A stretch of 39,067 bases of DNA, taken from a virus. Position numbers and translations under genes: made by a program. Within the stretch, counting starts at the first letter, position 1, and each line of letters starts with the position of its first letter. Below the pieces are notes generated by a model that saw nothing but the letters and a program-made list of their open reading frames with translations, ran no database searches and had not been told where the DNA came from. The stretch lies in the IMG/VR virus record IMGVR_UViG_3300005326_000032; one strand, 5' to 3'. Below are positions 1,740 to 35,666 of this stretch, piece after piece.

Positions 1740-3422
1740 ATGGCAACAAGTACAGCCCAAGACTACGAGGAAAAGGGGAGAAAAAAGGAGTATGATAAAG
1801 CATATTGGCTATCCTATACTAAAGAGAAGTTTGAAGAGAGTAGAAACTGGAGAGGTGAGAAAGTAGAGTTGCAGTGGTTTGTTAATTACATGTACTACAA
1901 GGGCAACCAGAACCTCAAGTTTGATAAAACAACAGGTAGTTTTGTAAAAGATGTTAGAAACCCACTTACCTTTTACATTAATCACACTTATATGGTGTGT
2001 AGAGCTGTAAGAAATGCTGTAATGAAGACAAGACCAACTTGGGATGTAGACGCTTTGCCTTACGGGGAATTAGATAAAGATACAAGTAGAATATTAGGTG
2101 AATACTTAGCGTTCCAATACGATAGGCTCAACATTGAAGAGAAGATGAACAAGGGTTTGCTTTATGGTTTGCTTTACGGACTTGGTGTATTTCAATATGG
2201 ATACGATGATAGATTAGATGATGGAGAGGGGAATGCTTGGATAGAAGCACTTGATCCGTTTGATACCTACATTGACCCATATTGTACAAGTATGGAAGAC
2301 GCAAGGTATGTTGTTAAGGTTATGAGTAAGCCTTACGAGCTGATTAAAGACAACCCTAACTACGATAAGAAGATAATAGAAGATTTAAGTACCACCTCGG
2401 CACTGAGCGAAAGTGATTATAAAAACCTAATACTTAATAGTGAAAATAACACGAGTAATTCTACTAAGAACTTAATACTTCACGAAACATGGTGTGTTAC
2501 TAAAGATGGGATACGAGTAATAACAACTTGTAATGATGAAATACTAAGAAACGAGTTGTCTGAGTTTAAGAAACTTCCGTTTGAAATATACCAACCTGAT
2601 ATTAACATAGGTGGTATTTATGGTGAGGGTTGGGTTAAAAACATAGTACCCCTTAACAAAGCTTCCAATTACCTAGAAACAAGTAGGCTTGAGTACAATA
2701 TCCTCATAAACAAGGGAAGACTTCTTATACCAAAGGGTGCAGGAGTTAAGAGTGTTACAAATCAAAATGGAGAAAAGATATATTATAAGAACGGATTTAA
2801 ACCAGAGTTTCTACCTACACCTCCAATGGGAAGTGATGTAGACAGACAGATTAATGCACTTGGAACTTACATTCAGTTAATAGGTGCCGCAAACGAGGCG
2901 TTTATTGGACAAACACCAACGGGAGTTAAGAGTGGAATAGCTATTGAAAGTTTAATTGCTGCTAATTTCAATCAGTTGTACGACTTGGTCAACAACCTAT
3001 CAAACACCTTAGCAAGGCTTGGAGAGGACATACTTGAAATGGGATACAAGTATCAGTTGCTTACAAAGCCATTCAGAAGCTCTACAGGGGAGTATTATGG
3101 AATATTAGGTGGTGGAATGGAACCAAAGGAAATGGAAAGACTTATGCAGGTTGTTGCAATACCATCTAACCCAGAGGTTAAGGTAAGAATAACCAGTGGG
3201 GTAGCACATACCAAAGAGGGTAAGAAAGAGATACTAATGACCCTAAGAGCAGGTGGAGATGTGAGTAGAAAGACATTGCTTGAGGGATTAGACATTGACA
3301 GTGAAGAAGAAGCAGAGAGATTACTAGAAGAACAAATGCCACCTGAGCCACAGGGAGGAATGCCGACAGAAATGGATCCTAACATGCCACTACCAGAGGG
3401 TATGCAATTACAGGTACCCTAA
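1740..3422 (+). CDS. Portal protein
   Basis: 560 aa. Position after terL and before scaffold/capsid, typical portal size, acidic Pro/Glu-rich C-terminus. No SD; ATGGCA start. Confidence 0.8.
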   Translation: MATSTAQDYEEKGRKKEYDKAYWLSYTKEKFEESRNWRGEKVELQWFVNYMYYKGNQNLKFDKTTGSFVKDVRNPLTFYINHTYMVCRAVRNAVMKTRPTWDVDALPYGELDKDTSRILGEYLAFQYDRLNIEEKMNKGLLYGLLYGLGVFQYGYDDRLDDGEGNAWIEALDPFDTYIDPYCTSMEDARYVVKVMSKPYELIKDNPNYDKKIIEDLSTTSALSESDYKNLILNSENNTSNSTKNLILHETWCVTKDGIRVITTCNDEILRNELSEFKKLPFEIYQPDINIGGIYGEGWVKNIVPLNKASNYLETSRLEYNILINKGRLLIPKGAGVKSVTNQNGEKIYYKNGFKPEFLPTPPMGSDVDRQINALGTYIQLIGAANEAFIGQTPTGVKSGIAIESLIAANFNQLYDLVNNLSNTLARLGEDILEMGYKYQLLTKPFRSSTGEYYGILGGGMEPKEMERLMQVVAIPSNPEVKVRITSGVAHTKEGKKEILMTLRAGGDVSRKTLLEGLDIDSEEEAERLLEEQMPPEPQGGMPTEMDPNMPLPEGMQLQVP

Positions 3423-3569: not shown

Positions 3570-4307
3570 ATGGAGGACACAAACTCAATAGCTGTAAATA
3601 CAACGGAAGCTCCCGTTACAGAATCAGCACCTGTAGAAACAAGCACTGTGGATACTTCTGTTGAATCGTCAGAGAAGACGCTAATCACCGATAAAGTAGA
3701 GCAGGGTACTGACTTGGCAACCCAAGAGGAGAAAATATCTAAACATGTCCCTTATGATGTGTTTAGGGAAAAAAACGAGGAGGCTAAGAAGTACAAAGCG
3801 GAACTGGCAGAGCTAAAGGCAAAACAGGAAGAGAGTGAGAGACTTTCTACCATGACTCCAGAGCAACAGTACCAAGAAGAGCAATTAGAGGTTGCAAAAC
3901 AAACTCTACAAAAGCTTGGATTTGTTACTAAAGAGGAACAGGAGAAAATGGCACAAGAGCAGAAAGCTGCCAACATGTTTATTGCAGAATGTAATAGACT
4001 AGAGGGTAAGCACGATGGCTCGGATGGTATGCCTAAGTTTGTTGCTACAGAAATGGCAGAGTACATGGATGAGTTAGCTAAGAGTGGACAGTATATATCT
4101 GACCCTGAGACAGCTTATAAACTCAAATACCTTGACCAGATAGCCGAGACAAAAGCAAAGCAACAGAGAAGCTCAACATTTTCAGAGAAGCAGCAAGGAG
4201 GCATGAACCAAGTAAACGATACTAGAAGTTCAGAGCTAGAGGCTGCAAGTAAAACTGGAGATTTTACACAGTTTCTTAAGAAGCATGCACCAATGCCTAA
4301 GTCTTAA
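3570..4307 (+). CDS. Scaffolding protein (putative)
   Basis: 245 aa, E/K/Q-rich with coiled-coil-like composition, located between portal and major capsid genes. Confidence 0.65.
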   Translation: MEDTNSIAVNTTEAPVTESAPVETSTVDTSVESSEKTLITDKVEQGTDLATQEEKISKHVPYDVFREKNEEAKKYKAELAELKAKQEESERLSTMTPEQQYQEEQLEVAKQTLQKLGFVTKEEQEKMAQEQKAANMFIAECNRLEGKHDGSDGMPKFVATEMAEYMDELAKSGQYISDPETAYKLKYLDQIAETKAKQQRSSTFSEKQQGGMNQVNDTRSSELEAASKTGDFTQFLKKHAPMPKS

Positions 4308-6955: not shown

Positions 6956-6993
6956 TAAGTATACGAGGATGTATTAATTTACAATGTAATAAT

Positions 6994-7653
6994 ATGACAT
7001 TCTCGGTAATGCAAACAGAGGTTGGGGATTTACTCAATATGACAATAAGTGCTAATAGCACTGTTACAACGACTCAGGTTAAAAGAGACCTAAACACAGC
7101 AAGAGACTTAGTACTTAATAGACTCCTTACATTAGGACAGAATTACTTTTTAAGGATTGCTAAGGCTGATACAGTCGCCAACCAATCATTGTATTCACTT
7201 CCAACAGATTTTAGAAAGTTTGCAAGACTAGAGATAGGGTATGATAGTGCAACCGATAGGGTTAAGGTTAATCAAATAGATGTTTCAGAAATAAGAGACA
7301 GTACAGACCAATTTTCACAAAGCAATCCAAAGTACACAATAATAGGGAATATGTTTGAGCTTAGACCAACACCTCTTGTTGCTGTAACGGATGGTTTGTA
7401 CATGCTTTATGTAGAAAACCCTGCCGATATGAGTGGGGATAGTGATGTTACAGGGCTTCCTCTTGATTACGATAGCTTACTAACCCTTTATGCTTCTGCT
7501 AAGGGTAAATATACTTTGGGACTAGCTAATGAGGGCAATAATATGATGGCTCAGTTTAACCTAGGGTTGGACGAAATGGAGAATAATATAGTTGAGAGAA
7601 ACATAGATAGTGGTGGAACAATCGCACTTGTAGATGAGTATGGAGGGTTATAA
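6994..7653 (+). CDS. Head-tail adaptor/connector-like structural protein (tentative)
   Basis: 219 aa. Called from its position between the head genes and the tail fibres. No diagnostic motif. Confidence 0.4.
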   Translation: MTFSVMQTEVGDLLNMTISANSTVTTTQVKRDLNTARDLVLNRLLTLGQNYFLRIAKADTVANQSLYSLPTDFRKFARLEIGYDSATDRVKVNQIDVSEIRDSTDQFSQSNPKYTIIGNMFELRPTPLVAVTDGLYMLYVENPADMSGDSDVTGLPLDYDSLLTLYASAKGKYTLGLANEGNNMMAQFNLGLDEMENNIVERNIDSGGTIALVDEYGGL

Positions 7654-7921: not shown

Positions 7922-11359
<3,438 letters not shown>

Positions 11360-25041: not shown

Positions 25042-26073
25042 ATGAGTAGACCACGAGGAAGTAAAAACAAACCAAAACAACCCACCATTAAAATTACACT
25101 ACCAAACACCATGTCTAGCCTAGAAACCGAGGGTATATACAAATCAAACAAAGAGGATAGTTTTGAGTCAAAGAGGGAAATTGAACAAAGTTACTTACAG
25201 AAAGCAAGAATAGAAATTGAAGAAGGCTCTATGCCTGCAAACTTAACTTTTGAGGACTTCCACGAAGAGGCTTTGCGTAGATCAGACTTTAGGGAAAGAG
25301 TTGAGGGTGAGAAAAGACATGTTGAAATAAGTATAGAAACTAAAAAACCAATAGCAATAGCTTTCCTATCAGACCTACACATTGGAAATGCAGGAATAGA
25401 CTATGAGCTTTTAAAAGAAACAGGAAGGATTATTAAAGAACACCCCCTAGCCTATTGTATAACAGCAGGAGATATAACAGACTCTCTCTTCTTTGACTAT
25501 GGGGAAGAGATACTAAACATGCAAGAGCAATATGTTTACATGCACAAACTACTCTCTTGGATAGGTTCAGATAATATATTGGCTGGTATTGTTGGAAACC
25601 ATGAGAGCTGGGCTAGAAAAAGTGGGGTAACCAATTATATAGAGTTTAGTAATCATACACAAAGACCTCTTTTAAGGGGTGTTAGTTTTGTTGATTTAAC
25701 AGTAGGTAAGATACCTTATAGGCTTATGATGGCACACAGGTTTAGGGGAGAAAGTATGTATAACCCTACTCATCAAGAAAGCAGGGCCAACAGAGAGTTA
25801 CAAGGTGCAGATATTATTATGGCAGGACACACACACAAACCTGGTGAGAGTGTTATATACCAACCTGAGTATGGTGGTGGTGCTAGAAAGGTTGCACTTG
25901 TTAATGGGAAGACATTTAAGAAATTAGACGCTTATGGGAAGGATCAAGGCTATACGCCTATAACAGCAGAGCAACTTGGTTGTAACTGGATAGTATTAAA
26001 CCATGATAGAAAAATGGTAAGGGTATGCTCAAGTAATGAGGAAATGCTAGAAACAATGAAAGGTTATATTTAA
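25042..26073 (+). CDS. Calcineurin-like metallophosphoesterase
   Basis: 343 aa. Motifs FLSDLHIG, GDITD, GNHE and GHTH appear in the canonical order. Confidence 0.8.
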   Translation: MSRPRGSKNKPKQPTIKITLPNTMSSLETEGIYKSNKEDSFESKREIEQSYLQKARIEIEEGSMPANLTFEDFHEEALRRSDFRERVEGEKRHVEISIETKKPIAIAFLSDLHIGNAGIDYELLKETGRIIKEHPLAYCITAGDITDSLFFDYGEEILNMQEQYVYMHKLLSWIGSDNILAGIVGNHESWARKSGVTNYIEFSNHTQRPLLRGVSFVDLTVGKIPYRLMMAHRFRGESMYNPTHQESRANRELQGADIIMAGHTHKPGESVIYQPEYGGGARKVALVNGKTFKKLDAYGKDQGYTPITAEQLGCNWIVLNHDRKMVRVCSSNEEMLETMKGYI

Positions 26074-26084
26074 AACATAGAAAC

Positions 26085-26207
26085 ATGATAACAAGACAAA
26101 GATGTGAGGTTTATTCAAGAATAGTGGGTTACATTAGGCCTATTAGTCAATGGAACCCTGGGAAAAAATCGGAGTTTAAGGATAGGAAGGTGTTTAAGGC
26201 TCGTTGA
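26085..26207 (+). CDS. 40-aa ORF resembling the glycyl-radical C-terminus of class III ribonucleotide reductase (NrdD)
   Basis: Not in the ORF track. MITRQRCEVYSRIVGYIRPISQWNPGKKSEFKDRKVFKAR. The R-I-V-G-Y … W-N-x-G-K-x-x-E-F-x-D-R pattern matches my recollection of NrdD C-termini. Confidence 0.45.
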   Translation: MITRQRCEVYSRIVGYIRPISQWNPGKKSEFKDRKVFKAR

Positions 26208-26336
26208 AAACTTAATAGGGTTGGTAATTCTTATAACTAGCACACACAACTTATAGACTACAACTAGGACTTACTGCTTCGTTACCAACTCTGTTGAGTT
26301 TTTAATAGCTCAGGCTCTTTTAAAAGGAGATTGGAA

Positions 26337-29658: not shown

Positions 29659-29886
29659 ATGAAAATATCAAGACCAATTAAAGGTGTGAGGGTAGTGGAT
29701 CTAACAGAAGACACTCCAAGTGTGTTTGGTAGGTTAGAAGAGAGAATGAGAATTAGAGAAAGATTGAAAAAAGAGTTGAACAAAGAAATGACTATTGAGC
29801 AGAAAGAAAAGCTCTACGAGGTTAAGATAAGATTTATGAAAGACCTAGAAGAGAGCTTTAGTAAAAAGCTGTACGAAGCAGATTAA
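29659..29886 (+). CDS. Hypothetical protein
   Basis: 75 aa, charged and helical. Confidence 0.45.
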   Translation: MKISRPIKGVRVVDLTEDTPSVFGRLEERMRIRERLKKELNKEMTIEQKEKLYEVKIRFMKDLEESFSKKLYEAD

Positions 29887-29903
29887 ATTAACTAAATAAA
29901 GAA

Positions 29904-30521
29904 ATGAAGAAGAATATAAAAGAATATCTACAAGAGTTATTAGATAAATGGAATGGTTATGACGAATTAGACGGGTTTGCTGCCGGATCTTTTAGGATTG
30001 ATTTGGAAATGTTGTTAAAGTATTGGGATTTAAGAATTGACCAACCCAAGAAGCAACCAGAGATAAAAAGTGATGCAGAGGAGGCTATTGATTTATGTGT
30101 AGATATGGCGTTCTCAAGGAATAAAGAGCTAGAGGATTTAGAGGAGGGGACAATAAAAGGCATAGAAAGGCGTTCTAAGGAATGGAAAGAACATAAAAAG
30201 GAGTTTGACAAAAAGGCAGAAGAACAGTTAGAAAGATTTAAGTTCAAACCAGAGAAGCAAGAGGAGTGGAGAGAGAGATTACTTCTTTTGTCACCTTGTA
30301 AGGGCTTAATAGGAGATGTTAAAAGTGGGAAGATTAAAGATATAGAACTGTCTTTCAAGCAGAATGAGTTGTTAGATTTCATATCCCAACTACTATCCGA
30401 GAGAAGTTTTAGTAAGAAAGAGTTTGAATATGTAAAAAACAATTTACGAATGGAAATAGGAGCAGAAGCATATTATGAAGCAGTTTTAGAAAAGATAGAA
30501 AGGTTCTTAAGTGGCTCTTAA
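29904..30521 (+). CDS. Hypothetical protein, paralog of CDS 33769-34437
   Basis: 205 aa. Shares PEKQEEWR and DFISQLLSE…SERxF(S/T)K(K/E) segments with the downstream paralog, including 25-nt and 17-nt identical DNA stretches. Confidence 0.55.
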   Translation: MKKNIKEYLQELLDKWNGYDELDGFAAGSFRIDLEMLLKYWDLRIDQPKKQPEIKSDAEEAIDLCVDMAFSRNKELEDLEEGTIKGIERRSKEWKEHKKEFDKKAEEQLERFKFKPEKQEEWRERLLLLSPCKGLIGDVKSGKIKDIELSFKQNELLDFISQLLSERSFSKKEFEYVKNNLRMEIGAEAYYEAVLEKIERFLSGS

Positions 30522-30524
30522 AAT

Positions 30525-30653
30525 AATGGGGTATCCAAAAGAGTAAGGGGTTTGCTAAATAATAAGCAGGGTGGCTTTATAGCGAAAGCTTAGCAAGGGA
30601 GTTTCATATCTTCCTGTAATAACCGTTGCTGGGTTCAATTCCCAGCCCCCATT
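30525..30653 (+). ncRNA. Expanded tRNA-like RNA (about 129 nt)
   Basis: Acceptor-like pairing AATGGGG (30525-30531) / CCCCATT (30647-30653). Canonical T-arm (G)CTGGG-TTCAATT-CCCAG(C) at 30628-30646. Internal 7-bp hairpin TTGCTAA/TTAGCAA (30552-30558 / 30590-30596). Anticodon-arm-like AGGGAG-TTTCATAT-CTTCCT at 30596-30615. Confidence 0.5.
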
Positions 30654-30675
30654 ACTATAAGATTATTTTAAACAC

Positions 30676-30703
30676 TTGACACTAGTTGTACAGGGTGTAA
30701 GAT
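30676..30703 (+). promoter_or_regulatory. Sigma70-type promoter TTGACA-N16-TAAGAT
   Basis: Perfect -35 hexamer at 30676-30681 and -10 TAAGAT at 30698-30703, 32 nt upstream of ATG 30736. Confidence 0.5.
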
Positions 30704-30735
30704 ATAAACAATATATAACTTATTATATTACAAAT

Positions 30736-31431
30736 ATGAAGGTAATTAATTTAAAAGAAAAGACTAGCAGACTTAGAAATAAGGTTGTTGGTAGCGTTAT
30801 GGGTGTTGATCTCTTTGACGGACAAAAAAGAGGAGAGGTTATAGCTAGGAGAGTGTTAATACTTGTTTTGCTAATTCTAGCGATATATGTTTTACTAGAT
30901 TTGCTAGTAGACAAGGGTTGGATAACCACAAACGAGCAAAGGCAAGTACAGGCGACTACTCAAACTATTACCCAAGCCCCTGTAGTGCCCCTAGAAATTA
31001 GAGAGGTGTCCCCTGTGGCTCAACAGACCACTCCACAAAAACAAGAGGTTTTAAAGGCACCACAGCCCCTTACGGATAATATTGAAAAGTATATAGCAAG
31101 GTATGGTGGGGAGTATGACACAAGTTACATTAAACACTTGAGAAATTATTGTGATATACCAACACTTAAGTTAGTGGTCGCAATTAGTGTAGCAGAGACA
31201 GGAATGGGAAAAACAACAGACAGGAATACAAACTACTTTGGATATTTTTACAATGGAAATAGGAGTTATGATCCAAGTCAAGAGGAGATGGCAAAGGTTA
31301 TTTGTAGGGGTATTGGAAAGTATTACAGTGATGTAGCAACTAACTATGAGAAAGCAAAAAGATACACAGGGAATGACCACACTACAACTTGGATGGGTAA
31401 TGTACAAAAAGCTCTTTTAGAAATGAATTAA
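30736..31431 (+). CDS. Membrane-anchored glucosaminidase/lysozyme-like muralytic protein (tentative)
   Basis: 231 aa from ATG 30736; the track TTG start at 30676 coincides with the promoter -35. TM helix VLILVLLILAIYVLLDLLV, a Q/T/P linker, then AISVAETGMGKTTDRNTNYFGY, which resembles the glucosaminidase (LytD/FlgJ) A-x-x-E-S-G-W-G…N-N-x-F-G motif. Confidence 0.45.
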   Translation: MKVINLKEKTSRLRNKVVGSVMGVDLFDGQKRGEVIARRVLILVLLILAIYVLLDLLVDKGWITTNEQRQVQATTQTITQAPVVPLEIREVSPVAQQTTPQKQEVLKAPQPLTDNIEKYIARYGGEYDTSYIKHLRNYCDIPTLKLVVAISVAETGMGKTTDRNTNYFGYFYNGNRSYDPSQEEMAKVICRGIGKYYSDVATNYEKAKRYTGNDHTTTWMGNVQKALLEMN

Positions 31432-31441
31432 AAATTAGGGT

Positions 31442-31537
31442 GTTACTTGTACCCTGGTTCTGGATTGTGGGTATTTAATTCGGGCAGTTTTAAATACGAC
31501 TAACCCACTTTAATTCTGGAGCTAAGGCACAGGTAAC
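31442..31537 (+). ncRNA. Structured RNA 0 (stem-closed element abutting the tRNA-Met 5' end)
   Basis: GTTACTTGTAC (31442-31452) pairs with GCACAGGTAAC (31527-31537): 11 positions, one G-U, one mismatch. An internal 8-bp hairpin GTATTTAA/TTAAATAC lies at 31471-31478 / 31490-31497. Confidence 0.35.
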
Positions 31538-31539
31538 AT

Positions 31540-31611
31540 CGCAGGGAAGTGTAACGGTTGCACTTTAGGTTCATAGCCTAAGAGTAGTTAGTTCAATTCT
31601 AACCCCTGCAA
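31540..31611 (+). tRNA. tRNA-Met (anticodon CAT); C1-A72 mismatch
   Basis: Hand-folded cloverleaf. Acceptor CGCAGGG/CCCTGCA, D-arm GTGT-AACGGTT-GCAC, anticodon arm TTAGG-TTCATAG-CCTAA, variable GAGTA, T-arm GTTAG-TTCAATT-CTAAC. No encoded CCA. Confidence 0.8.
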
Positions 31612-31626
31612 GTTCTTTTAATAATT

Positions 31627-31806
31627 TGTATGAGGTACTTTGGTGGTGTAATAGGTAGACGCAGGTTTATGTCACAGGGGCAAAGTGATTCTCCTAATCA
31701 GAGCAGCCTGTCCGCTCGGCCGAAATGTGTTGCGTGATTCGCATTGTAGCAAAGTAGGCCACTGGATGTTGTAGGGTGCAAATCCTTACCCAGAGTATCT
31801 CATACA
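31627..31806 (+). ncRNA. Structured RNA 1: tRNA-like RNA with 17-bp terminal helix, D-arm, T-arm and an ~80-nt internal insertion
   Basis: 31627-31643 pairs with 31790-31806. D-arm GTGT-AATAGGTAG-ACGC at 31646-31662. GGTTT+ATGTCAC at 31664-31675. T-arm-like GTAGGG-TGCAAAT-CCTTAC at 31771-31789. Confidence 0.55.
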
Positions 31807-31829
31807 GGTTATTAGCTCTTTAATAATTG

Positions 31830-31954
31830 AGTGTACAGAAGTAAGGTACAAGTCGGACATATCTGTTCTATATTCTAGAAGAGCAGTGGGTCTCCGAGCC
31901 AATAACAAGTAAGGTTGCAAGATACCTTGTGCGGTTCAGTTACTTCTGTATATT
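31830..31954 (+). ncRNA. Structured RNA 2: rod-like stem-closed RNA
   Basis: 31830-31844 pairs with 31940-31954 (15 bp, two G-U). A second helix joins 31846-31852 and 31926-31932. Internal hairpins TTCTA-TATTC-TAGAA (31866-31880) and TCGGA/TCCGA (31853-31857 / 31893-31897). Confidence 0.45.
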
Positions 31955-31993
31955 GAGTTATTAAGGAGTAGTTTAATTTAATCAGAAGAGAAG

Positions 31994-33175
31994 ATGAAAG
32001 AAATCAACACAGAAAAAACACAGGTAAAACTATGGTTAGAAGATATAGAAGATGGAGCTATGGAGCAGATAAAAAACATTGCTAACTTGCCATTTATATA
32101 TAAGTGGGTTGCAGTAATGCCTGATAGTCACCAAGGGTATGGTATGCCTATTGGTGGGGTTGTAGCTCTTACTGATGTTATTAGCCCCAATATGGTGGGC
32201 GTAGATATTGGTTGTGGAATGTGTGCGGTTAATACTCATATAAAAACCGAAAGTATTACGCAGGAACAATTAAAAGAGATACTTGGTGGTATTAGAAAGG
32301 TTGTACCAGTTGGGTTTGCACACCACCAGAAGAAACAAGACGAGAGTTTAATGCCTTTTAGTAACAGTAAGGGTGCTAATGGTGTAGTCGTATCTCAGGA
32401 GTATGACAACGCTTTAACACAAATAGGAACACTTGGTGGGGGTAATCACTTTATAGAATTACAGAAAAGTAGTGATGGAGAGCTATGGATAATGATACAT
32501 TCGGGTAGTAGAAACTTGGGTAAACAGGTGTGCGACTACTACAATGCAAAAGCTATTGAGTTAGCTAAGAAGTGGTATATACCAAATGTTATAGAACAAG
32601 ACTTAGCATATCTACCTACCGATACTAAAGAAGGTCAAGATTATATACAAGAAATGCAGTATTGCGTTGACTTTGCATTTGCTAATAGAAAGCTAATGAT
32701 AGAAAAAGTTATGGGAGTAATAACAGATGTACTTGGGGATTACAAAGCAGATGAGATAATTAACATAGCACACAACTACGCAAGGTTGGAAAATCATATG
32801 GGTAGGAATGTATGGGTTCACAGAAAAGGTGCAACAAGTGCAAGACTAGGAGAGGTTGGAATTATACCAGGCTCTATGGGTACAAAGTCATATATAACAG
32901 AGGGGTTAGGGAATGTTCAATCTTTTATGAGTTGTTCACACGGAGCAGGTAGAAAAATGGGTAGAATGGAAGCGAGTAGAAGTATAACATTAGAGGAAGC
33001 AGACAAGTCTATGGAGGGAGTTGTATATGGTAGGTGGGGTAAGGATAGGAAAGGTAATTTAGATTTTGGAGAAGCACCACAAGCGTATAAGGACATAGAT
33101 GTTGTTATGGAAAACCAGAAAGACTTAACAAAAATATTGGTGGAATTGAAGCCACTAGCAGTTGTTAAGGGATAA
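31994..33175 (+). CDS. rtcB: RNA 3'-phosphate/5'-OH ligase RtcB
   Basis: 393 aa. Motifs MPDSHQGYGMPIGGV, DIGCGM, GGGNHFIE, HSGSRNLG, AHNY, HRKGAT, GSMG and SCSHGAGR appear in canonical RtcB order. Confidence 0.95.
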   Translation: MKEINTEKTQVKLWLEDIEDGAMEQIKNIANLPFIYKWVAVMPDSHQGYGMPIGGVVALTDVISPNMVGVDIGCGMCAVNTHIKTESITQEQLKEILGGIRKVVPVGFAHHQKKQDESLMPFSNSKGANGVVVSQEYDNALTQIGTLGGGNHFIELQKSSDGELWIMIHSGSRNLGKQVCDYYNAKAIELAKKWYIPNVIEQDLAYLPTDTKEGQDYIQEMQYCVDFAFANRKLMIEKVMGVITDVLGDYKADEIINIAHNYARLENHMGRNVWVHRKGATSARLGEVGIIPGSMGTKSYITEGLGNVQSFMSCSHGAGRKMGRMEASRSITLEEADKSMEGVVYGRWGKDRKGNLDFGEAPQAYKDIDVVMENQKDLTKILVELKPLAVVKG

Positions 33176-33249
33176 CAGGGATTGGCTCAGATGGCTAGAG
33201 TGCCTGCATTGGAAGCAGGAGGTCGCAGGTTCAAGTCCTGCATCCCTGA
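33176..33249 (+). tRNA. tRNA-Pro (anticodon TGG)
   Basis: Hand-folded cloverleaf. Acceptor CAGGGAT/ATCCCTG, D-arm GCTC-AGATGGCTA-GAGT, anticodon arm CCTGC-ATTGGAA-GCAGG, variable AGGTC, T-arm GCAGG-TTCAAGT-CCTGC. It starts at the base after the rtcB stop. No encoded CCA. Confidence 0.9.
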
Positions 33250-33279
33250 TTAGTTAGTTTAATTTAATCATTACAGAGA

Positions 33280-33462
33280 ATGGAAGAGAAAATGCAAAAA
33301 AGAATTAAATTACTAGAAGACCTTAAAACAGACCTTGCCAACCAAAGGTGGCAGTTGAGGGAATGTGGACAGGCTTTTACCGATGGGCAAATTGCGATGA
33401 TTACCCAAGAGATTAAATGGTTGATGGAGTTCCTATCTAACATTAAACAGGACACAAAATGA
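33280..33462 (+). CDS. Hypothetical protein
   Basis: 60-aa helical ORF. Confidence 0.45.
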   Translation: MEEKMQKRIKLLEDLKTDLANQRWQLRECGQAFTDGQIAMITQEIKWLMEFLSNIKQDTK

Positions 33463-33776
33463 CACAGCAGGAGAAAGAGATAAGGAAGTTTAGAAAAGAT
33501 TTGGATATGTTCATAGTGTCCCCAATTGGAGTATCGGGTTGGACAGAGCAGAATGAGGAAGAACTAAAAGACTACTGGATTAAAGAAATAGGAGTATGGA
33601 TTAACAATGCAGTACAAGAAGCAAAGAGGGAGGTGCTAGAGGAGGTACTAAAGAAGAAAACTAATTACAAAATAGAAAAAGAGGAACACGGATATAGGGT
33701 CACATTAGAGTATGTTTTAGTAGATGATATTGAGAAAGAGTTAGATAACATTAAACAAAGTAAAAACAATGGATAA
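33459..33776 (+). CDS. Hypothetical protein
   Basis: 105 aa. ATGA overlap with the upstream ORF. Confidence 0.5.
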   Translation: MTQQEKEIRKFRKDLDMFIVSPIGVSGWTEQNEEELKDYWIKEIGVWINNAVQEAKREVLEEVLKKKTNYKIEKEEHGYRVTLEYVLVDDIEKELDNIKQSKNNG

Positions 33777-34437
33777 GATAGAGAAGATGAGTGGATATAG
33801 CGAAGTAACTATGAAGCTTAAAATCAACGAGATAATAGATTACCTTAACCAATCCCAGAAGCAACCAGAGGGAGAATACAAGTGTGGAACTTTAGAAGTG
33901 TTGAAGAATCCAAAGTTAAGAAAAGAATTATCACAAACAAGAGAATGGAATGATGAATGTGGTAATCACCATATAGAAAAAGTTGATTCAAATGGGGTTA
34001 CTAAAACTGTAATTCCAAATGAACCAGAGAAGCAAGAGGAGTGGAGGAAAAGAATTACTTGGGAAGATGGAGAATATTTTATGATAGACGGAAAAGAAGC
34101 TAATGAGGAAGATTTAAGAGATTTTATATCTCAACTACTATCCGAGAGTAAGGAGAAAGCAGAAGCATTTGATGAATTACACGATATACTTAAACCTTAT
34201 CATAAAGAAGCAGAGGACTATACGGACACATTAAAGAGAGTACTATCCGAGAGGATATTTACTAAAGAGAAGTTAAACTATTTGGCAACTGGATTGCAAG
34301 TATATTATGAAGATATGGAGAGAGAGTTGCTATTCAAGAAAACAAGTTCTCTGAGGTTCTCAATTCTAAAGGAGGAGATGGAACAGATTGGTATATTAAG
34401 AGAAAAGTTGTCTAAACTATTAAAGGAGGAAGAATAA
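33769..34437 (+). CDS. Hypothetical protein, paralog of CDS 29904-30521
   Basis: 222 aa. Shares the PEKQEEWR and DFISQLLSE blocks with its paralog. Confidence 0.55.
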   Translation: MDKIEKMSGYSEVTMKLKINEIIDYLNQSQKQPEGEYKCGTLEVLKNPKLRKELSQTREWNDECGNHHIEKVDSNGVTKTVIPNEPEKQEEWRKRITWEDGEYFMIDGKEANEEDLRDFISQLLSESKEKAEAFDELHDILKPYHKEAEDYTDTLKRVLSERIFTKEKLNYLATGLQVYYEDMERELLFKKTSSLRFSILKEEMEQIGILREKLSKLLKEEE

Positions 34438-34682
34438 TGGATAAGTTTAAGTTGCCAAGATATGAATACGGAAAAGATACACTAAACGAGGAGATTGTAA
34501 GAAGAGGTTTAGATAGTAAGGAATATAATTGGACAACATTGGCAAATGGTAATGAACTAAGCCTTACAGAGTACGACTTCACACCTGCCGATAAAGACAA
34601 GGTTCAGTTATATATACTCTTCCTAGAGGATGAGATAAACAAGTTATGGGAAGCAATTAATTTATTAAAGGAGGAAGAATGA
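34437..34682 (+). CDS. Hypothetical protein
   Basis: 81 aa. Strong SD AAGGAGGAAG and TAATG overlap. Confidence 0.55.
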   Translation: MDKFKLPRYEYGKDTLNEEIVRRGLDSKEYNWTTLANGNELSLTEYDFTPADKDKVQLYILFLEDEINKLWEAINLLKEEE

Positions 34683-35343: not shown

Positions 35344-35469
35344 ATGAAAGAAGATATAAAAGATGGTTTGAAATTAACACTACTTTTAATTGTCTTAGGG
35401 TTCTTTGGGTGTGTAGTGGTTTATTGGGGTATTTTAGTATTACTTTACATTTGGAGTTTAGCACAATGA
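35344..35469 (+). CDS. 41-aa membrane peptide
   Basis: Internal ATG of track ORF 35281-35469. Sequence MKEDIKDGLKLTLLLIVLGFFGCVVVYWGILVLLYIWSLAQ. The upstream part of the track ORF overlaps the better 52-aa ORF. Confidence 0.4.
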   Translation: MKEDIKDGLKLTLLLIVLGFFGCVVVYWGILVLLYIWSLAQ

Positions 35470-35666
35470 AGACAGTCTATCAGATAGCAAAAGACAACAA
35501 GTCGTATCCTGTAATAATTTACAAAAGAATACGAGCAAGGGGAATTAAGCCTAGAATAATTAAAGGTGTTATGTATTTAGACGAGTGCCAAGAAAAGCAA
35601 GTTTTAACTTATGCTAAGAGAGGAAGGAAAAGTGTCAAAGATAACAAAAACAACACTAGGACATAA
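35466..35666 (+). CDS. Small basic, possibly HTH DNA-binding protein
   Basis: 66 aa from ATG 35466 (ATGA overlap). Basic C-terminus. Confidence 0.35.
   Translation: MKTVYQIAKDNKSYPVIIYKRIRARGIKPRIIKGVMYLDECQEKQVLTYAKRGRKSVKDNKNNTRT

Follow-up and report, generated by a model that had tools for sequence, protein, structure and literature searches.

An RtcB ligase gene beside a lineage-wide array of helix-clamped RNAs: a probable RNA-repair island in an SU10-like podophage

Why does a phage genome of only about 39 kb carry a gene for an RNA ligase together with a row of structured RNAs, and do the two belong to one system? The DNA analyzed here, referred to as the window, is the whole stretch of 39,067 nucleotides from an uncultured groundwater phage of the SU10-like podophage lineage, and the locus in question lies in its early region. 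An earlier note had read the locus as a phage RNA repair system in which RtcB is encoded together with its cognate RNAs. That interpretation as a whole is partly supported: the features it listed are all present, with some coordinates shifted by a few bases, and the intact RtcB and the adjacency of phage RtcB and tRNA genes agree with it, but the idea of cognate RNAs is not supported. The island is probably an RNA-repair island with new RNAs, because an intact RtcB, tRNAs and clamped RNAs are found together and because sister phages have Ro60 and Y RNAs there.

A sigma-70-type promoter-like site (TTGACA-16-TAAGAT, plus strand, 30676-30703), in a region conserved in L144 and L163, is situated directly 3' of the tRNA-like RNA0 and is the probable start of a transcription unit running through the array and rtcB, inside which no terminator-like sites were seen. 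Directly before the array lies the gene of a 231-aa membrane-anchored protein (plus strand, 30736-31431), which takes the same place in L045, L138, L156, L157-161, L163 and L165-168 as in the window phage and is present on roughly 120 contigs. The protein matches nothing in Pfam or PHROG, and its C-terminal domain, modeled by AF2 with pLDDT >90, matches no PDB fold. The following 562 nt (31432-31993) contain no plus-strand ORF of at least 40 aa and are tiled, in this order, by RNA1 (31439-31540), tRNA-Met, RNA2 (31618-31815) and RNA3 (31813-31971), all on the plus strand. The tiling of this stretch by tRNA-Met and three RNAs had been recognized before, but the closing helices, then given as 11-17 bp, are much longer: ~24 bp (interrupted) in RNA1, 26 bp in RNA2 and 29-30 bp in RNA3.

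The rtcB gene (plus strand, 31994-33175) encodes a full-length 3'-phosphate/5'-hydroxyl RNA ligase, which covers the entire profile of Pfam PF01139 (E=1.4e-116). Consistent with the canonical motif set previously ascribed to it, the alignment keeps all catalytic residues, i.e., Asp95, Cys98, Asn202/His203, His234, His329 and GMP-His404 (P. horikoshii numbering), with no loss among the metal-binding or GMP-His residues, and RtcB is thus predicted to be catalytically intact. tRNA-Pro(UGG) (plus strand, 33176-33249) indeed begins at the very next base after the rtcB stop codon, while tRNA-Met(CAU) (plus strand, 31539-31612) lies within the array; both are called by ARAGORN and Rfam. The latter has an initiator-like C1.A72 mismatch, lacks an encoded CCA and is 100% identical in L045, with which tRNA-Pro makes a clean presence/absence difference. 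The description of a dense cluster of tRNAs was overstated because true tRNAs number only two. Among 117 phage RtcB loci, 22 show a tRNA on the strand of rtcB and no more than 300 nt away from it, and tRNA-Pro lies directly downstream of the gene in 14 of the 17 loci with a downstream tRNA.

All non-tRNA units of the array have closing helices that are rich in G.U and at least 22 bp long. RNA1 is a rod-like hairpin (fold z=-5.7) whose core helix, CCCUGNUNNUGGA/UCUGNNGNUAAGG, is conserved in the opening unit of the array in at least five lineages; in a comparison of five sequences, 3 of the 13 core pairs show compensatory double changes and 4 are invariant G.U pairs, and the first array unit of L163 is similar. 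The stem of RNA2 (fold z=-5.1) encloses 146 nt, with a D-arm-like hairpin beside the 5' arm and a T-arm-like one, GUAGGG-UGCAAAU-CCUUAC, beside the 3' arm. This stem hardly varies across lineages: L045, L139 and L156 have the very same arms and L138 almost the same, with interiors that all differ, whereas the flanking protein is just 42-64% identical. RNA3 (fold z=-4.3) has a 95-nt interior that holds a T-arm-like hairpin, and all six members of its family keep stems of 22-30 bp despite inner-arm identity of only 7-36%. Most interiors fold no better than shuffles (z from +0.9, the value for the RNA2 interior folded alone, to -2.6), are unique to each haplotype and are swapped whole between close relatives, so that a specific folded effector domain is unproven. 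An element in the style of the array, with a G.U-rich stem of 27-30 bp and an unstructured 52-nt loop (plus strand, 26201-26308; z=-5.25), also exists in the early region distant from rtcB, where a 40-aa ORF, a C-terminal fragment of NrdD, has its stop codon within the element.

RNA0 (plus strand, 30516-30662) was found where an expanded tRNA-like RNA had been proposed (30525-30653), and is longer than thought, but its fold is weaker (z=-1.9) and neither Rfam (E<=10) nor ARAGORN, with or without introns, calls it a tRNA. Its T arm is canonical (CTGGG-TTCAATT-CCCAG, 30629-30645), the acceptor stem is lengthened into a 16-bp terminal helix (30516-30531/30647-30662), the anticodon position is taken by a 6-bp stem capped by an 8-nt loop, and the variable region of ~58 nt forms two hairpins. 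It is 98.6% identical in L045, the differences being a hairpin G.U changed to G-C and T-loop C56 changed to U, and is missing from L144 and L156.

Under a strict filter, five long clamps were detected on the plus strand of the window and none on the minus strand; clamp arms pair 6-12 sd better than shuffles, and 12 stems contain 60 G.U pairs versus 7 A.C mismatches. Judged from sequence comparison, the clamped elements are plus-strand RNAs under selection, because G.U pairs far exceed A.C mismatches and pairing is kept through sequence replacement. Compensatory pairs occur in RNA1 and in the element designated RNAx. That the clamps are instead plus-strand ssDNA hairpins for lagging- or second-strand initiation, like plasmid sso cassettes, is hardly credible. 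The clamps are indeed long imperfect palindromes confined to one strand, arranged in tandem like cassettes where nothing is coded, and G.T is the mismatch best tolerated in DNA, but a true tRNA gene lies within the array, tRNA-like D/T arms are seen in RNA0 and RNA2, homologous arrays hold YrlA RNAs, and the elements follow the promoter-like site in the direction of transcription.

Comparison of relatives separates the array from its neighbor. Many members of the lineage have an array in the corresponding place of the genome, and seven haplotypes (L138, L139, L141, L144, L156, L157-161 and L165) have arrays of the same architecture with no rtcB, Ro60 or tRNA in the DNA examined; the RNAs, therefore, would need no phage-encoded partner. 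Conversely, rtcB is found without an array in L162, where it accompanies RlaP, and in all phages with more distant RtcB, in which coding DNA lies immediately 5' of rtcB and long clamps are not enriched. In L163, the slot of rtcB is occupied by Ro60/TROVE, and the array before it gives a YrlA match in Rfam (48.5 bits, E=8.7e-9); L169 and L170, which were found via their Ro60, likewise have TROVE and upstream arrays with YrlA (RF02553) matches; in other relatives the slot holds unrelated small genes. In the window, an intergenic boundary motif on the plus strand stands as a direct repeat on both sides of rtcB and tRNA-Pro, AGTAGTTTAATTTAA just 5' of rtcB (31967-31981) and GTTAGTTTAATTTAA just 3' of tRNA-Pro (33253-33267). 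The former stands before other genes in L139 and L141, and L045 and L139 match 33253-33290 at 100% identity. The array is the conserved feature of the lineage and rtcB a swappable cargo gained and lost as a module, and the earlier claim that the RNAs are substrates, decoys or scaffolds cognate to RtcB finds no support. PeSLs are conserved boundary cassettes that drive modular shuffling in T4-type hyperplastic regions, and the present lineage resembles them in its short conserved module boundaries and in the presence/absence and replacement of cargo between close relatives, but here the boundaries are two RNA-stem arms and the cargo is non-coding.

Such independence could also mean that the array and rtcB are neighbors with no link in function, a reading we consider rather unlikely. 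The clamps would then be generic RNase III, insulator or 3'-stabilizer hairpins of early polycistronic transcripts, similar to the T7 R sites, whose loops drift or are swapped, and rtcB with tRNA-Pro would be a moron that landed in a hyperplastic region, at a boundary where recombination is frequent. The arrays without rtcB, the rtcB genes without arrays, the direct repeat, the largely unstructured interiors, the distant clamp at 26201-26308 and the brief conserved stretches that mark many gene junctions of the lineage, which indicate modular shuffling, all suit this reading. RNase III stems of rRNA operons and of T7 early mRNA, which are at least 20 bp long and flank RNA to be excised from polycistronic transcripts, do resemble the long tandem flanking stems of the transcript predicted here. 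The enclosed RNAs of 50-270 nt are, however, hypervariable, cleavage is only predicted, and RNase III has no need of a stem as invariant in sequence as that of RNA2. Moreover, three different RNA-repair or quality-control cargos (RtcB, RlaP with RtcB, and Ro60) occupy the slot in 4 of ~13 haplotypes, the arrays in the Ro60 cases contain the partner Y RNAs, and RNA0 and RNA2 have tRNA-like arms.

The Ro60-bearing slot of the sister phages makes the previously drawn analogy with RtcB, Ro and Y RNAs an apt one for the locus, as do RlaP and RtcB in L162. Y RNAs consist of a long stem of the 5' and 3' ends and a tRNA-like module, with the arm order T-AS-D in YrlA (PMC4201824). The stem-closed small RNAs, the tRNA-like module and the location on the same strand as RNA-repair genes are shared with Ro60(Rsr)-YrlA/YrlB and rsr-yrl-rtcBA systems (PMC4201824), which L163, L169 and L170 match exactly. 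It is nevertheless quite improbable that the RNAs of the window, RNA2 and RNA3 above all, represent divergent Y RNAs and act with a host Ro60, with RtcB co-expressed as in rsr-yrl-rtcBA operons. In addition to the Y-RNA-like architecture and the sister loci, this reading has sequence matches in its favor: the Ro60-array motif occurs once, as an exact match, in RNA3 (CAGUUACUUC, 31937-31946), GUGUACAGA is common to RNA3 and the helix that closes a YrlA-like unit of L163, and the invariant arm of RNA2 holds the related GGUACUUU. In contrast, no RF02553 or RF00019 match exists in the window at E<=10, nor was Ro60 found there, as the earlier note had also observed; the arms follow each other as D...T, and the terminal stem takes the acceptor position; the stems are far longer (24-30 bp), with interiors swapped wholesale between close relatives; the GNCGAAN0-1G motif was not found near any 5' end; and the sole motif copy lies on the 3' arm of RNA3 and is fully base-paired, with no copies in the other Ro-less arrays. 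The motif, C[AG]G[AT]UACUUC, has 12 copies in the Ro60-linked arrays, which it marks, and this single one in the window, which does not favor the main reading given below.

RtcB might instead mature the clamped RNAs, if an endonuclease left 2',3'-cyclic-P/5'-OH ends at the stem for RtcB to circularize or splice, as a natural analogue of circular RNA production by ribozymes or endonucleases plus RtcB. The terminal stems would bring the 5' and 3' ends together, rtcB is adjacent in the same orientation, and RNA0 and RNA2 resemble tRNAs with large insertions, but we regard this as very unlikely. The window RNAs have no YrlA or ribozyme match in Rfam at E<=10, ARAGORN gives no intron-containing tRNA among them, and RNA0 and RNA2, their tRNA-like D/T arms notwithstanding, match no tRNA, intron-tRNA or YrlA model. 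No candidate cyclizing nuclease was found among the ORFs scanned, the arrays exist without rtcB, and the stems are perfect duplexes in which bulge-helix-bulge features were not seen. Perfect dsRNA stems of this length suggest processing of the RNase III type, which leaves 5'-P/3'-OH ends that RtcB cannot join and so argues against the window RNAs as RtcB substrates.

A conflict over RNA cleavage is the most likely function of the island, and we give a probability of about 45% to the full reading, in which RtcB reseals, the tRNAs replace, and the clamped RNAs serve as mimics, decoys or scaffolds, with a swappable cargo slot just behind the array. The membrane-protein gene, RNA1, tRNA-Met, RNA2, RNA3, rtcB and tRNA-Pro would be transcribed from 30676 as one host-type unit, with RNA0 upstream of the promoter. 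The closing stems might be cut by host RNase III, serving excision and stabilization and releasing small RNAs that would be stable, while RNase P/Z would free the tRNAs at their flanks; the invariant RNA2 stem and the RNA1 core may additionally bind protein. RtcB would reseal host or phage tRNAs cut by host ribotoxins to 2',3'-cyclic-P/5'-OH ends, phage tRNAs would stand in for vulnerable host species, and the partly tRNA-like clamped RNAs might be Y-RNA-like mimics, decoys or scaffolds.

T4 repairs tRNAs with Pnkp and Rnl1, unlike the phage studied here, in which the enzyme is RtcB, and to our knowledge the clamp-and-cassette architecture has not been described for T4. Phage RNA-repair modules were reportedly treated by Burroughs and Aravind in 2016. 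The T4 tRNA cluster co-encodes with its tRNAs the stable RNAs RNAC and RNAD, whose role is unknown (PMC3014915, PMC9697503), and predicted small RNAs likewise accompany the phage tRNAs in the window. That phage RtcB and tRNAs counter tRNA-cleaving defenses is an established idea (Iyer et al. 2021, PMC7824862), and modules combining RtcB or Rnl with tRNA clusters, RlaP or Pnkp share with the window an intact RtcB among phage tRNAs. RlaP also lies beside RtcB in L137 and L162, the presumed role being the resealing of ribotoxin-cut tRNAs. The present island differs from those modules in that a 39-kb podophage combines two tRNAs and a single enzyme with an array of non-tRNA structured RNAs.

The 562 nt between the gene for a membrane-anchored 231-aa protein (30736-31431) and rtcB contain no plus-strand ORF of at least 40 aa, and minimum-free-energy folding tiles this entire gap with RNA1, tRNA-Met, RNA2, and RNA3, each of the numbered units being clamped by a long closing stem. 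An ORF-free stretch upstream of rtcB filled by tRNA-Met and three RNAs, as the earlier note had described it, is therefore borne out by folding. The closing helices it had assigned are likewise present in all three RNAs, but they exceed the claimed 11-17 bp: the helix is about 24 bp and interrupted in RNA1 (31439-31540; z = -5.7 versus dinucleotide shuffles), 26 bp in RNA2 (31618-31815; z = -5.1 versus the same type of shuffles), and 29-30 bp in RNA3 (31813-31971; z = -4.3, likewise). A further unit, RNA0 (30516-30662), reaches a z of only -1.9; its T arm is canonical, its acceptor stem continues into a helix of 16 bp in all, and an 8-nt loop occupies the anticodon-loop position. Directly after RNA0 comes a promoter-like site, TTGACA-16-TAAGAT (30676-30703), and no terminator-like site was found from there to rtcB. 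RNA2 of the window and of the related locus L138 bears a D-arm-like hairpin beside its 5' arm, a T-arm-like hairpin beside its 3' arm, and, at the anticodon-stem position, a helix with compensatory differences; these tRNA-like arms are reduced to a remnant in L139 and lacking in L045 and L156. Of the window units, only RNA0 and RNA2 bear both D- and T-like arms, arranged D...T.

The base-pair composition of the stems bears on the molecule in which they form. Twelve closing stems from the window and its relatives comprise 238 Watson-Crick pairs with 60 G.U and 7 A.C pairs, and the excess of G.U over A.C fits stems of plus-strand RNA rather than palindromes of double-stranded DNA. Because the plus strand of the window is G/T-rich, a broad G.U-tolerant helix scan was noisy and stricter filters were used instead; under the strict filter, the five long clamps of the window all lay on the plus strand. 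That the clamps serve as signals in single-stranded DNA, for which a strand bias would also be conceivable, is highly improbable. All six members of the RNA3 family retain stems of 22-30 bp that are 6-12 standard deviations better than those of shuffled sequences, and since these persist at an inner-arm identity of only 7-36%, the helix has been retained while its sequence was replaced. The core helix of RNA1 is kept in five lineages, with compensatory double changes in 3 of 13 pairs and four invariant G.U pairs. An additional three-helix RNA of about 80 nt, RNAx, is missing from the window and shows three compensatory pairs between L045 (3095-3180) and L156 (about 3590-3667); a fold-back copy of its hairpin at the end of another contig (L130 1-40) was considered as a variant and discarded as an assembly artefact. 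Conserved or compensated helices, whose absence from homologous phages the earlier note would have taken as a refutation, occur in the RNA1 core, the RNA3 family, and RNAx. On the grounds of the strand bias, the RNA3 family, and the RNA1 core, sequence comparison identifies the clamped units as RNAs under selection.

The interiors behave differently from the stems. Folded alone, most of them do not exceed shuffled sequence in stability (z +0.9 to -2.6), and they resemble neither each other, nor the phage genome, nor any comparison locus, so that selection acts mainly on the stems. An antisense role was rejected, given that the interiors lack significant complementarity to the phage genome. RNA2 is under a further, sequence-specific constraint, because its arms hardly differ among the window, L045, L138, L139, and L156, where identity of the neighbouring protein is down to 42-64%. 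An origin of the RNA2 stem from a host or prophage was also rejected: a 17-mer gave 10 matches in 185,579 bacterial and archaeal genomes, the 3' arm was found in none of them, and the matches are attributable to chance.

Comparison within the lineage separates the array from rtcB. At 95% identity or above, rtcB occurs in two haplotypes only, that of the window and that of L045, whose rtcB genes are 88% identical in nucleotides and 29% divergent at third positions. Between these two loci, RNA0 is 98.6% and tRNA-Met 100% identical; the stems of RNA1 are 100% identical with a diverged apex; the arms of RNA2 are identical around a completely different interior; and RNA3 keeps the same outer stem with an inner stem that differs yet is still complementary. 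L045 additionally carries RNAx as an extra 83-nt unit inserted exactly after tRNA-Met, and tRNA-Pro is precisely missing from it. Further members of the lineage were found with three queries, the RNA2 arm, the 3' boundary of RNA3, and the 231-aa protein, homologs of which are encoded on roughly 120 contigs. Full arrays stand at the same position in L138, L139, L141, L144, and L156, and a short version in L157-161 and L165, where the gap of L165 was folded and L166-168 share its gene layout; the boundary motif GYUCUUU(U)RA precedes units in these arrays. Neither rtcB nor a tRNA was found in the sequence covered at any of these loci (L138, L139, L141, L144, L156, L157-161, and, from gene tables only, L165-168). 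Homologs of the window genes at 33459 and 33769 come next after the array in L141, with no intervening rtcB. In the window, rtcB and tRNA-Pro lie between two direct copies of an intergenic motif (31967, AGTAGTTTAATTTAA; 33253, GTTAGTTTAATTTAA) that also precedes other genes in L139 and L141. Phages whose RtcB is at most 88% identical have coding DNA directly upstream of rtcB, and a general association of RtcB with clamps was rejected after 121 other loci gave 48 plus-strand and 39 minus-strand clamps in 754 kb, which is no enrichment. The arrays without rtcB, the flanking repeat, and the lack of clamp enrichment at other rtcB loci together indicate that the array is a feature of the lineage and rtcB an insert. 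One unit heading the array of L139 (minus strand 6968-7197; 230 nt, 53% G+C, z = -3.5, no Rfam match) is possibly a distinct structured RNA. Gene-junction sequences of 25-50 nt that are 90-100% identical in otherwise very diverged relatives (34418-34444, 34657-34680, 33736-33787, and 29882-29913), among them the ribosome-binding region ATTAAAGGAGGAAGAAT, probably serve to anchor recombination when modules are shuffled.

The inserted gene itself is intact. RtcB (31994-33175) matches PF01139 over its full length (profile positions 1-426 of 426; E = 1.4e-116) and phrog_1075 (E = 2.6e-125), and a phmmer alignment to 1uc2/4dwq shows D95, C98, N202/H203, H234, H329, and H404 (Pyrococcus horikoshii numbering) to be kept, so that all metal ligands and the GMP-accepting histidine are conserved and the full catalytic motif set read from the sequence earlier holds. 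Both tRNAs named at that time were also confirmed by ARAGORN and by Rfam RF00005 above the gathering threshold: tRNA-Met(CAU) at 31539-31612 (47.7 bits) and tRNA-Pro(UGG) at 33176-33249 (63.6 bits), the latter beginning one base past the rtcB stop. A C1.A72 mismatch is the hallmark of bacterial initiator tRNA, whose anticodon stem usually has three G-C pairs; tRNA-Met is initiator-like in having this mismatch, and its anticodon stem has only two G-C pairs. A tRNA-Pro lies directly downstream of rtcB in 14 of the 17 phage RtcB loci that have a tRNA there (L002, L003, L006, L007, L023, L048, L049, L051, L052, L054, L059, L061, L085, and L100, not all of them independent; 56-75% identity), with the anticodon UGG or, in two, CGG. 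This suggests that rtcB and tRNA-Pro travel as a cassette, and perhaps a host nuclease aimed at tRNA-Pro lies behind the pairing. Another RtcB phage, L014, has a tmRNA gene (2889-3236; Rfam 81.5 bits) about 700 nt upstream of rtcB. The lack of Ro60, RtcA, and Pnkp noted before was reproduced among the window ORFs scanned with Pfam and PHROG; these scans also revealed no domains of the T4-type tRNA repair pair Pnkp and Rnl1, and no archease, reverse transcriptase, or integrase was found among the ORFs scanned. The sole metallophosphoesterase of the window (25042-26073) matches the DNA repair exonuclease family phrog_7339.

The position directly after the array, which we call the slot, holds other cargo in relatives. 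In L162 the 231-aa homolog is followed within 1.7 kb by RlaP and RtcB. RlaP (PF10127, RNA-ligase-associated nucleotidyltransferase), absent from the window, lies within two genes of rtcB in L137 (2254-3018, downstream) and L162 (3197-3967, upstream). L163 is a 36-kb sister contig that the same study produced; its 231-aa gene is 53% identical and its promoter region is conserved, and it carries Ro60 (476 aa, TROVE and vWA_Ro60) at the exact position of rtcB in the window. Upstream of it lies a clamped array of 660 nt that matches the Rfam YrlA model (48.5 bits, E = 8.7e-9) and that also holds a second YrlA-like unit with a T arm, an acceptor-like hairpin, and a D arm, which is the YrlA order. 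L169 and L170 encode Ro60 proteins at 81% and 74% identity, their upstream arrays also match YrlA, and L170 has a homolog of the Erf/Rad52-like gene of the window at 65%. The motif C[AG]G[AT]UACUUC occurs four, five, and three times in the arrays of L163, L169, and L170, respectively (12 copies, all on the plus strand), and not once in the Ro-less arrays of L045, L138, L139, L144, L156, and L157, which makes it, from its distribution, a candidate Ro60-binding element of the L163, L169, and L170 phages. The repeats (L163 3974-4282; L169 1947-2427; L170 2214-2420) sit at the top of the 5' strand of the unit stems, where an A is sometimes bulged. What fills the slot is not random: RtcB, RlaP with RtcB, or Ro60. 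That generic processing hairpins and an rtcB moron are merely neutral neighbours, as the separate distribution of array and rtcB would allow, is possible though doubtful beside this choice of cargo.

The presence of Ro60 in sister phages raises the question of whether the window RNAs are Y RNAs of a host Ro60. Set against YrlA, the observations are these: a long stem joining the 5' and 3' ends is present in all units, the window has a single copy of C[AG]G[AT]UACUUC (31937-31946), base-paired in the RNA3 3' arm, GUGUACAGA of the RNA3 5' arm recurs in L163 in the stem that closes the second YrlA-like unit, and the invariant arm of RNA2 holds the related GGUACUUU; each of these motif similarities is a lead only. 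One criterion for YrlA is a Ro60/TROVE gene encoded on the same strand at a distance of about 4 kb at most (PMC4201824), and no such gene was found among the window ORFs scanned or by tblastn with the Ro60 of L163. The order of arms in the window is D...T versus T-AS-D in YrlA, for which the Ro-binding motif near the 5' end is GNCGAAN0-1G and, in these phages, C[AG]G[AT]UACUUC. The YrlA model (RF02553) gave no match in 30400-33400 at E<=10, although it matches the L163, L169, and L170 arrays. We therefore regard host-Ro60 Y RNAs as quite improbable.

Other known families fared no better. The Rfam searches covered the whole window (gathering threshold), 30400-33400 (E<=10), L045, L138, L139, L144, L156, and L157 (E<=1), and 12 other RtcB loci (gathering threshold only); over the Ro-less arrays and RtcB loci they returned tRNAs only, plus the tmRNA of L014. 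Y_RNA, YrlA, tmRNA, and group I introns, the families the earlier note had proposed to check, gave nothing at E<=10 in 30400-33400, where only tRNA matched. GOLLD, ROOL, and tmRNA were not found in the window either (Rfam at E<=10 on 30400-33400; ARAGORN tmRNA mode), nor were hammerhead, twister, HDV, pistol, or hatchet ribozymes at E<=10 in the window and E<=1 in six related arrays. RNA0 and RNA2 have no RF00005 match at E<=10, and ARAGORN default and intron modes were empty, with noise only at an 80% threshold. Intron-containing or split tRNAs were rejected, because ARAGORN -i with introns up to 300 nt found none at default stringency and the stems are uninterrupted duplexes. With no integrase among the ORFs scanned, RNA0 is not readily taken as an attP or integration site. 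The window is thus a member of the RtcB and tRNA families, and its RNAs fall outside YrlA, intron tRNAs, and ribozyme-flanked RNAs by the criteria tested.

We favour, at a probability of about 0.45, the reading that the island takes part in an RNA-cleavage conflict with the array RNAs as tRNA-like mimics, decoys, or scaffolds, and the occurrence of Ro60 with Y RNAs or of RlaP with RtcB in the slot of sister phages supports their belonging to such a conflict. The island would be transcribed from the promoter-like site at 30676. Stems of 22 bp or more have the length that RNase III needs, and rRNAs are flanked by similar processing stems; by a size criterion of at least 20 bp, or about two helical turns, RNA2, RNA3, and a clamp at 26201-26308 qualify, and RNA1 has its interrupted helix of about 24 bp. 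Clamps of at least 22 bp would accordingly be predicted to let RNase III excise and stabilize the enclosed RNAs, whereas RNase P and RNase Z would release the tRNAs. The RNA1 core and the RNA2 stem probably bind protein. RtcB joins 2',3'-cyclic phosphate or 3'-phosphate ends to 5'-OH ends, while the staggered double-strand cleavage of RNase III leaves 5'-phosphate and 3'-OH ends. The proposal that the array RNAs are substrates of RtcB was accordingly not sustained, as RtcB cannot join the ends that RNase III leaves and the majority of arrays occur without a phage RtcB; maturation or circularization of the window RNAs by RtcB, which their adjacency to the gene might suggest, is very unlikely. 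Following the accepted reading of phage RtcB and phage tRNAs (PMC7824862), RtcB would instead repair the tRNAs cut by host ribotoxins and the phage tRNAs would replace them. We consider it unlikely that the units form an undescribed class of phage noncoding RNA, a Y-RNA-like island with constant closing stems, exchangeable interiors, and no phage Ro60, in which some members such as RNA0 and RNA2 would be tRNA-cleavage decoys or scaffolds alongside RtcB, possibly sealed by it or circular.

Phages are already known to carry RtcB with tRNAs and, separately, Ro60 with Y RNAs. The locus compares most closely with the Ro60-YrlA loci of bacteria and phages and rsr-yrl-rtcBA operons, with phage modules for RtcB-tRNA repair, and with the tRNA cluster of T4, whose RNAC and RNAD still lack an explanation (PMC3014915, PMC9697503). 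What looks new is the tandem clamp-and-cassette architecture in which stems are constant and interiors replaced wholesale, its existence as a lineage-wide locus, and an adjoining slot that takes RtcB, RlaP, and Ro60 as alternatives. One hyperplastic slot beside a clamped-RNA array links the RtcB-tRNA and Ro60-Y RNA systems in a single evolutionary module, and a compact 39-kb genome is offered for asking what Y-RNA-like and tRNA-like RNAs do in infection. The invariant RNA2 stem, the RNA1 core with its four fixed G.U pairs, and the Ro60-tracking C[AG]G[AT]UACUUC yield testable hypotheses of protein binding, RNase III excision, and decoy function; if the RNAs are functional, families of structured decoy RNAs would join proteins and tRNAs in the counter-defence repertoire of phages.

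As for the phage itself, the ENA contig ERZ27247099 k141_832134 (39 kb) is essentially the window. The phage is uncultured and encodes nearly everything on the plus strand, and the related contigs come from groundwater metagenomes. Pfam identified a terminase, a P22/SU10-type portal, and an SU10 major capsid protein and adaptor. Against GenBank phages, blastn and tblastn found the major capsid protein at no more than 35% identity and otherwise tRNA-Pro matches only, with no match to the 231-aa protein; a motif-based guess that the latter is a lysozyme or glucosaminidase was dropped, as it has no Pfam, PHROG, or PDB fold match. The high-GC, repeat-rich stretch at 8-11 kb is explained by a gene (7922-11359) for a tail-fibre-like protein of 1145 aa that combines a right-handed beta-helix with collagen triple-helix repeats in five matched stretches. 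A 40-aa ORF (26085-26207) corresponds to the extreme C terminus of NrdD only (PF13597 positions 531-562 of 562, E = 1.7e-10), contains an RxxGY glycyl-radical-like motif, and stands alone beside a pair of genes for HNH endonucleases; either a "spare part" peptide or a remnant brought by homing is conceivable. Its stop codon is overlapped by the clamp at 26201-26308, a G.U-rich helix of 27-30 bp with a CA-rich unstructured loop of 52 nt (z = -5.25) in the style of the rtcB-proximal clamps, and a weaker clamp candidate lies at 35379-35570. On either side of the island, 29904-30521 and 33769-34437 encode paralogous E/K-rich proteins of no assigned function that have near-identical short nucleotide segments in common, for example, 30247-30275 and 34020-34046, and this protein family is present in multiple copies in L139 and L141.
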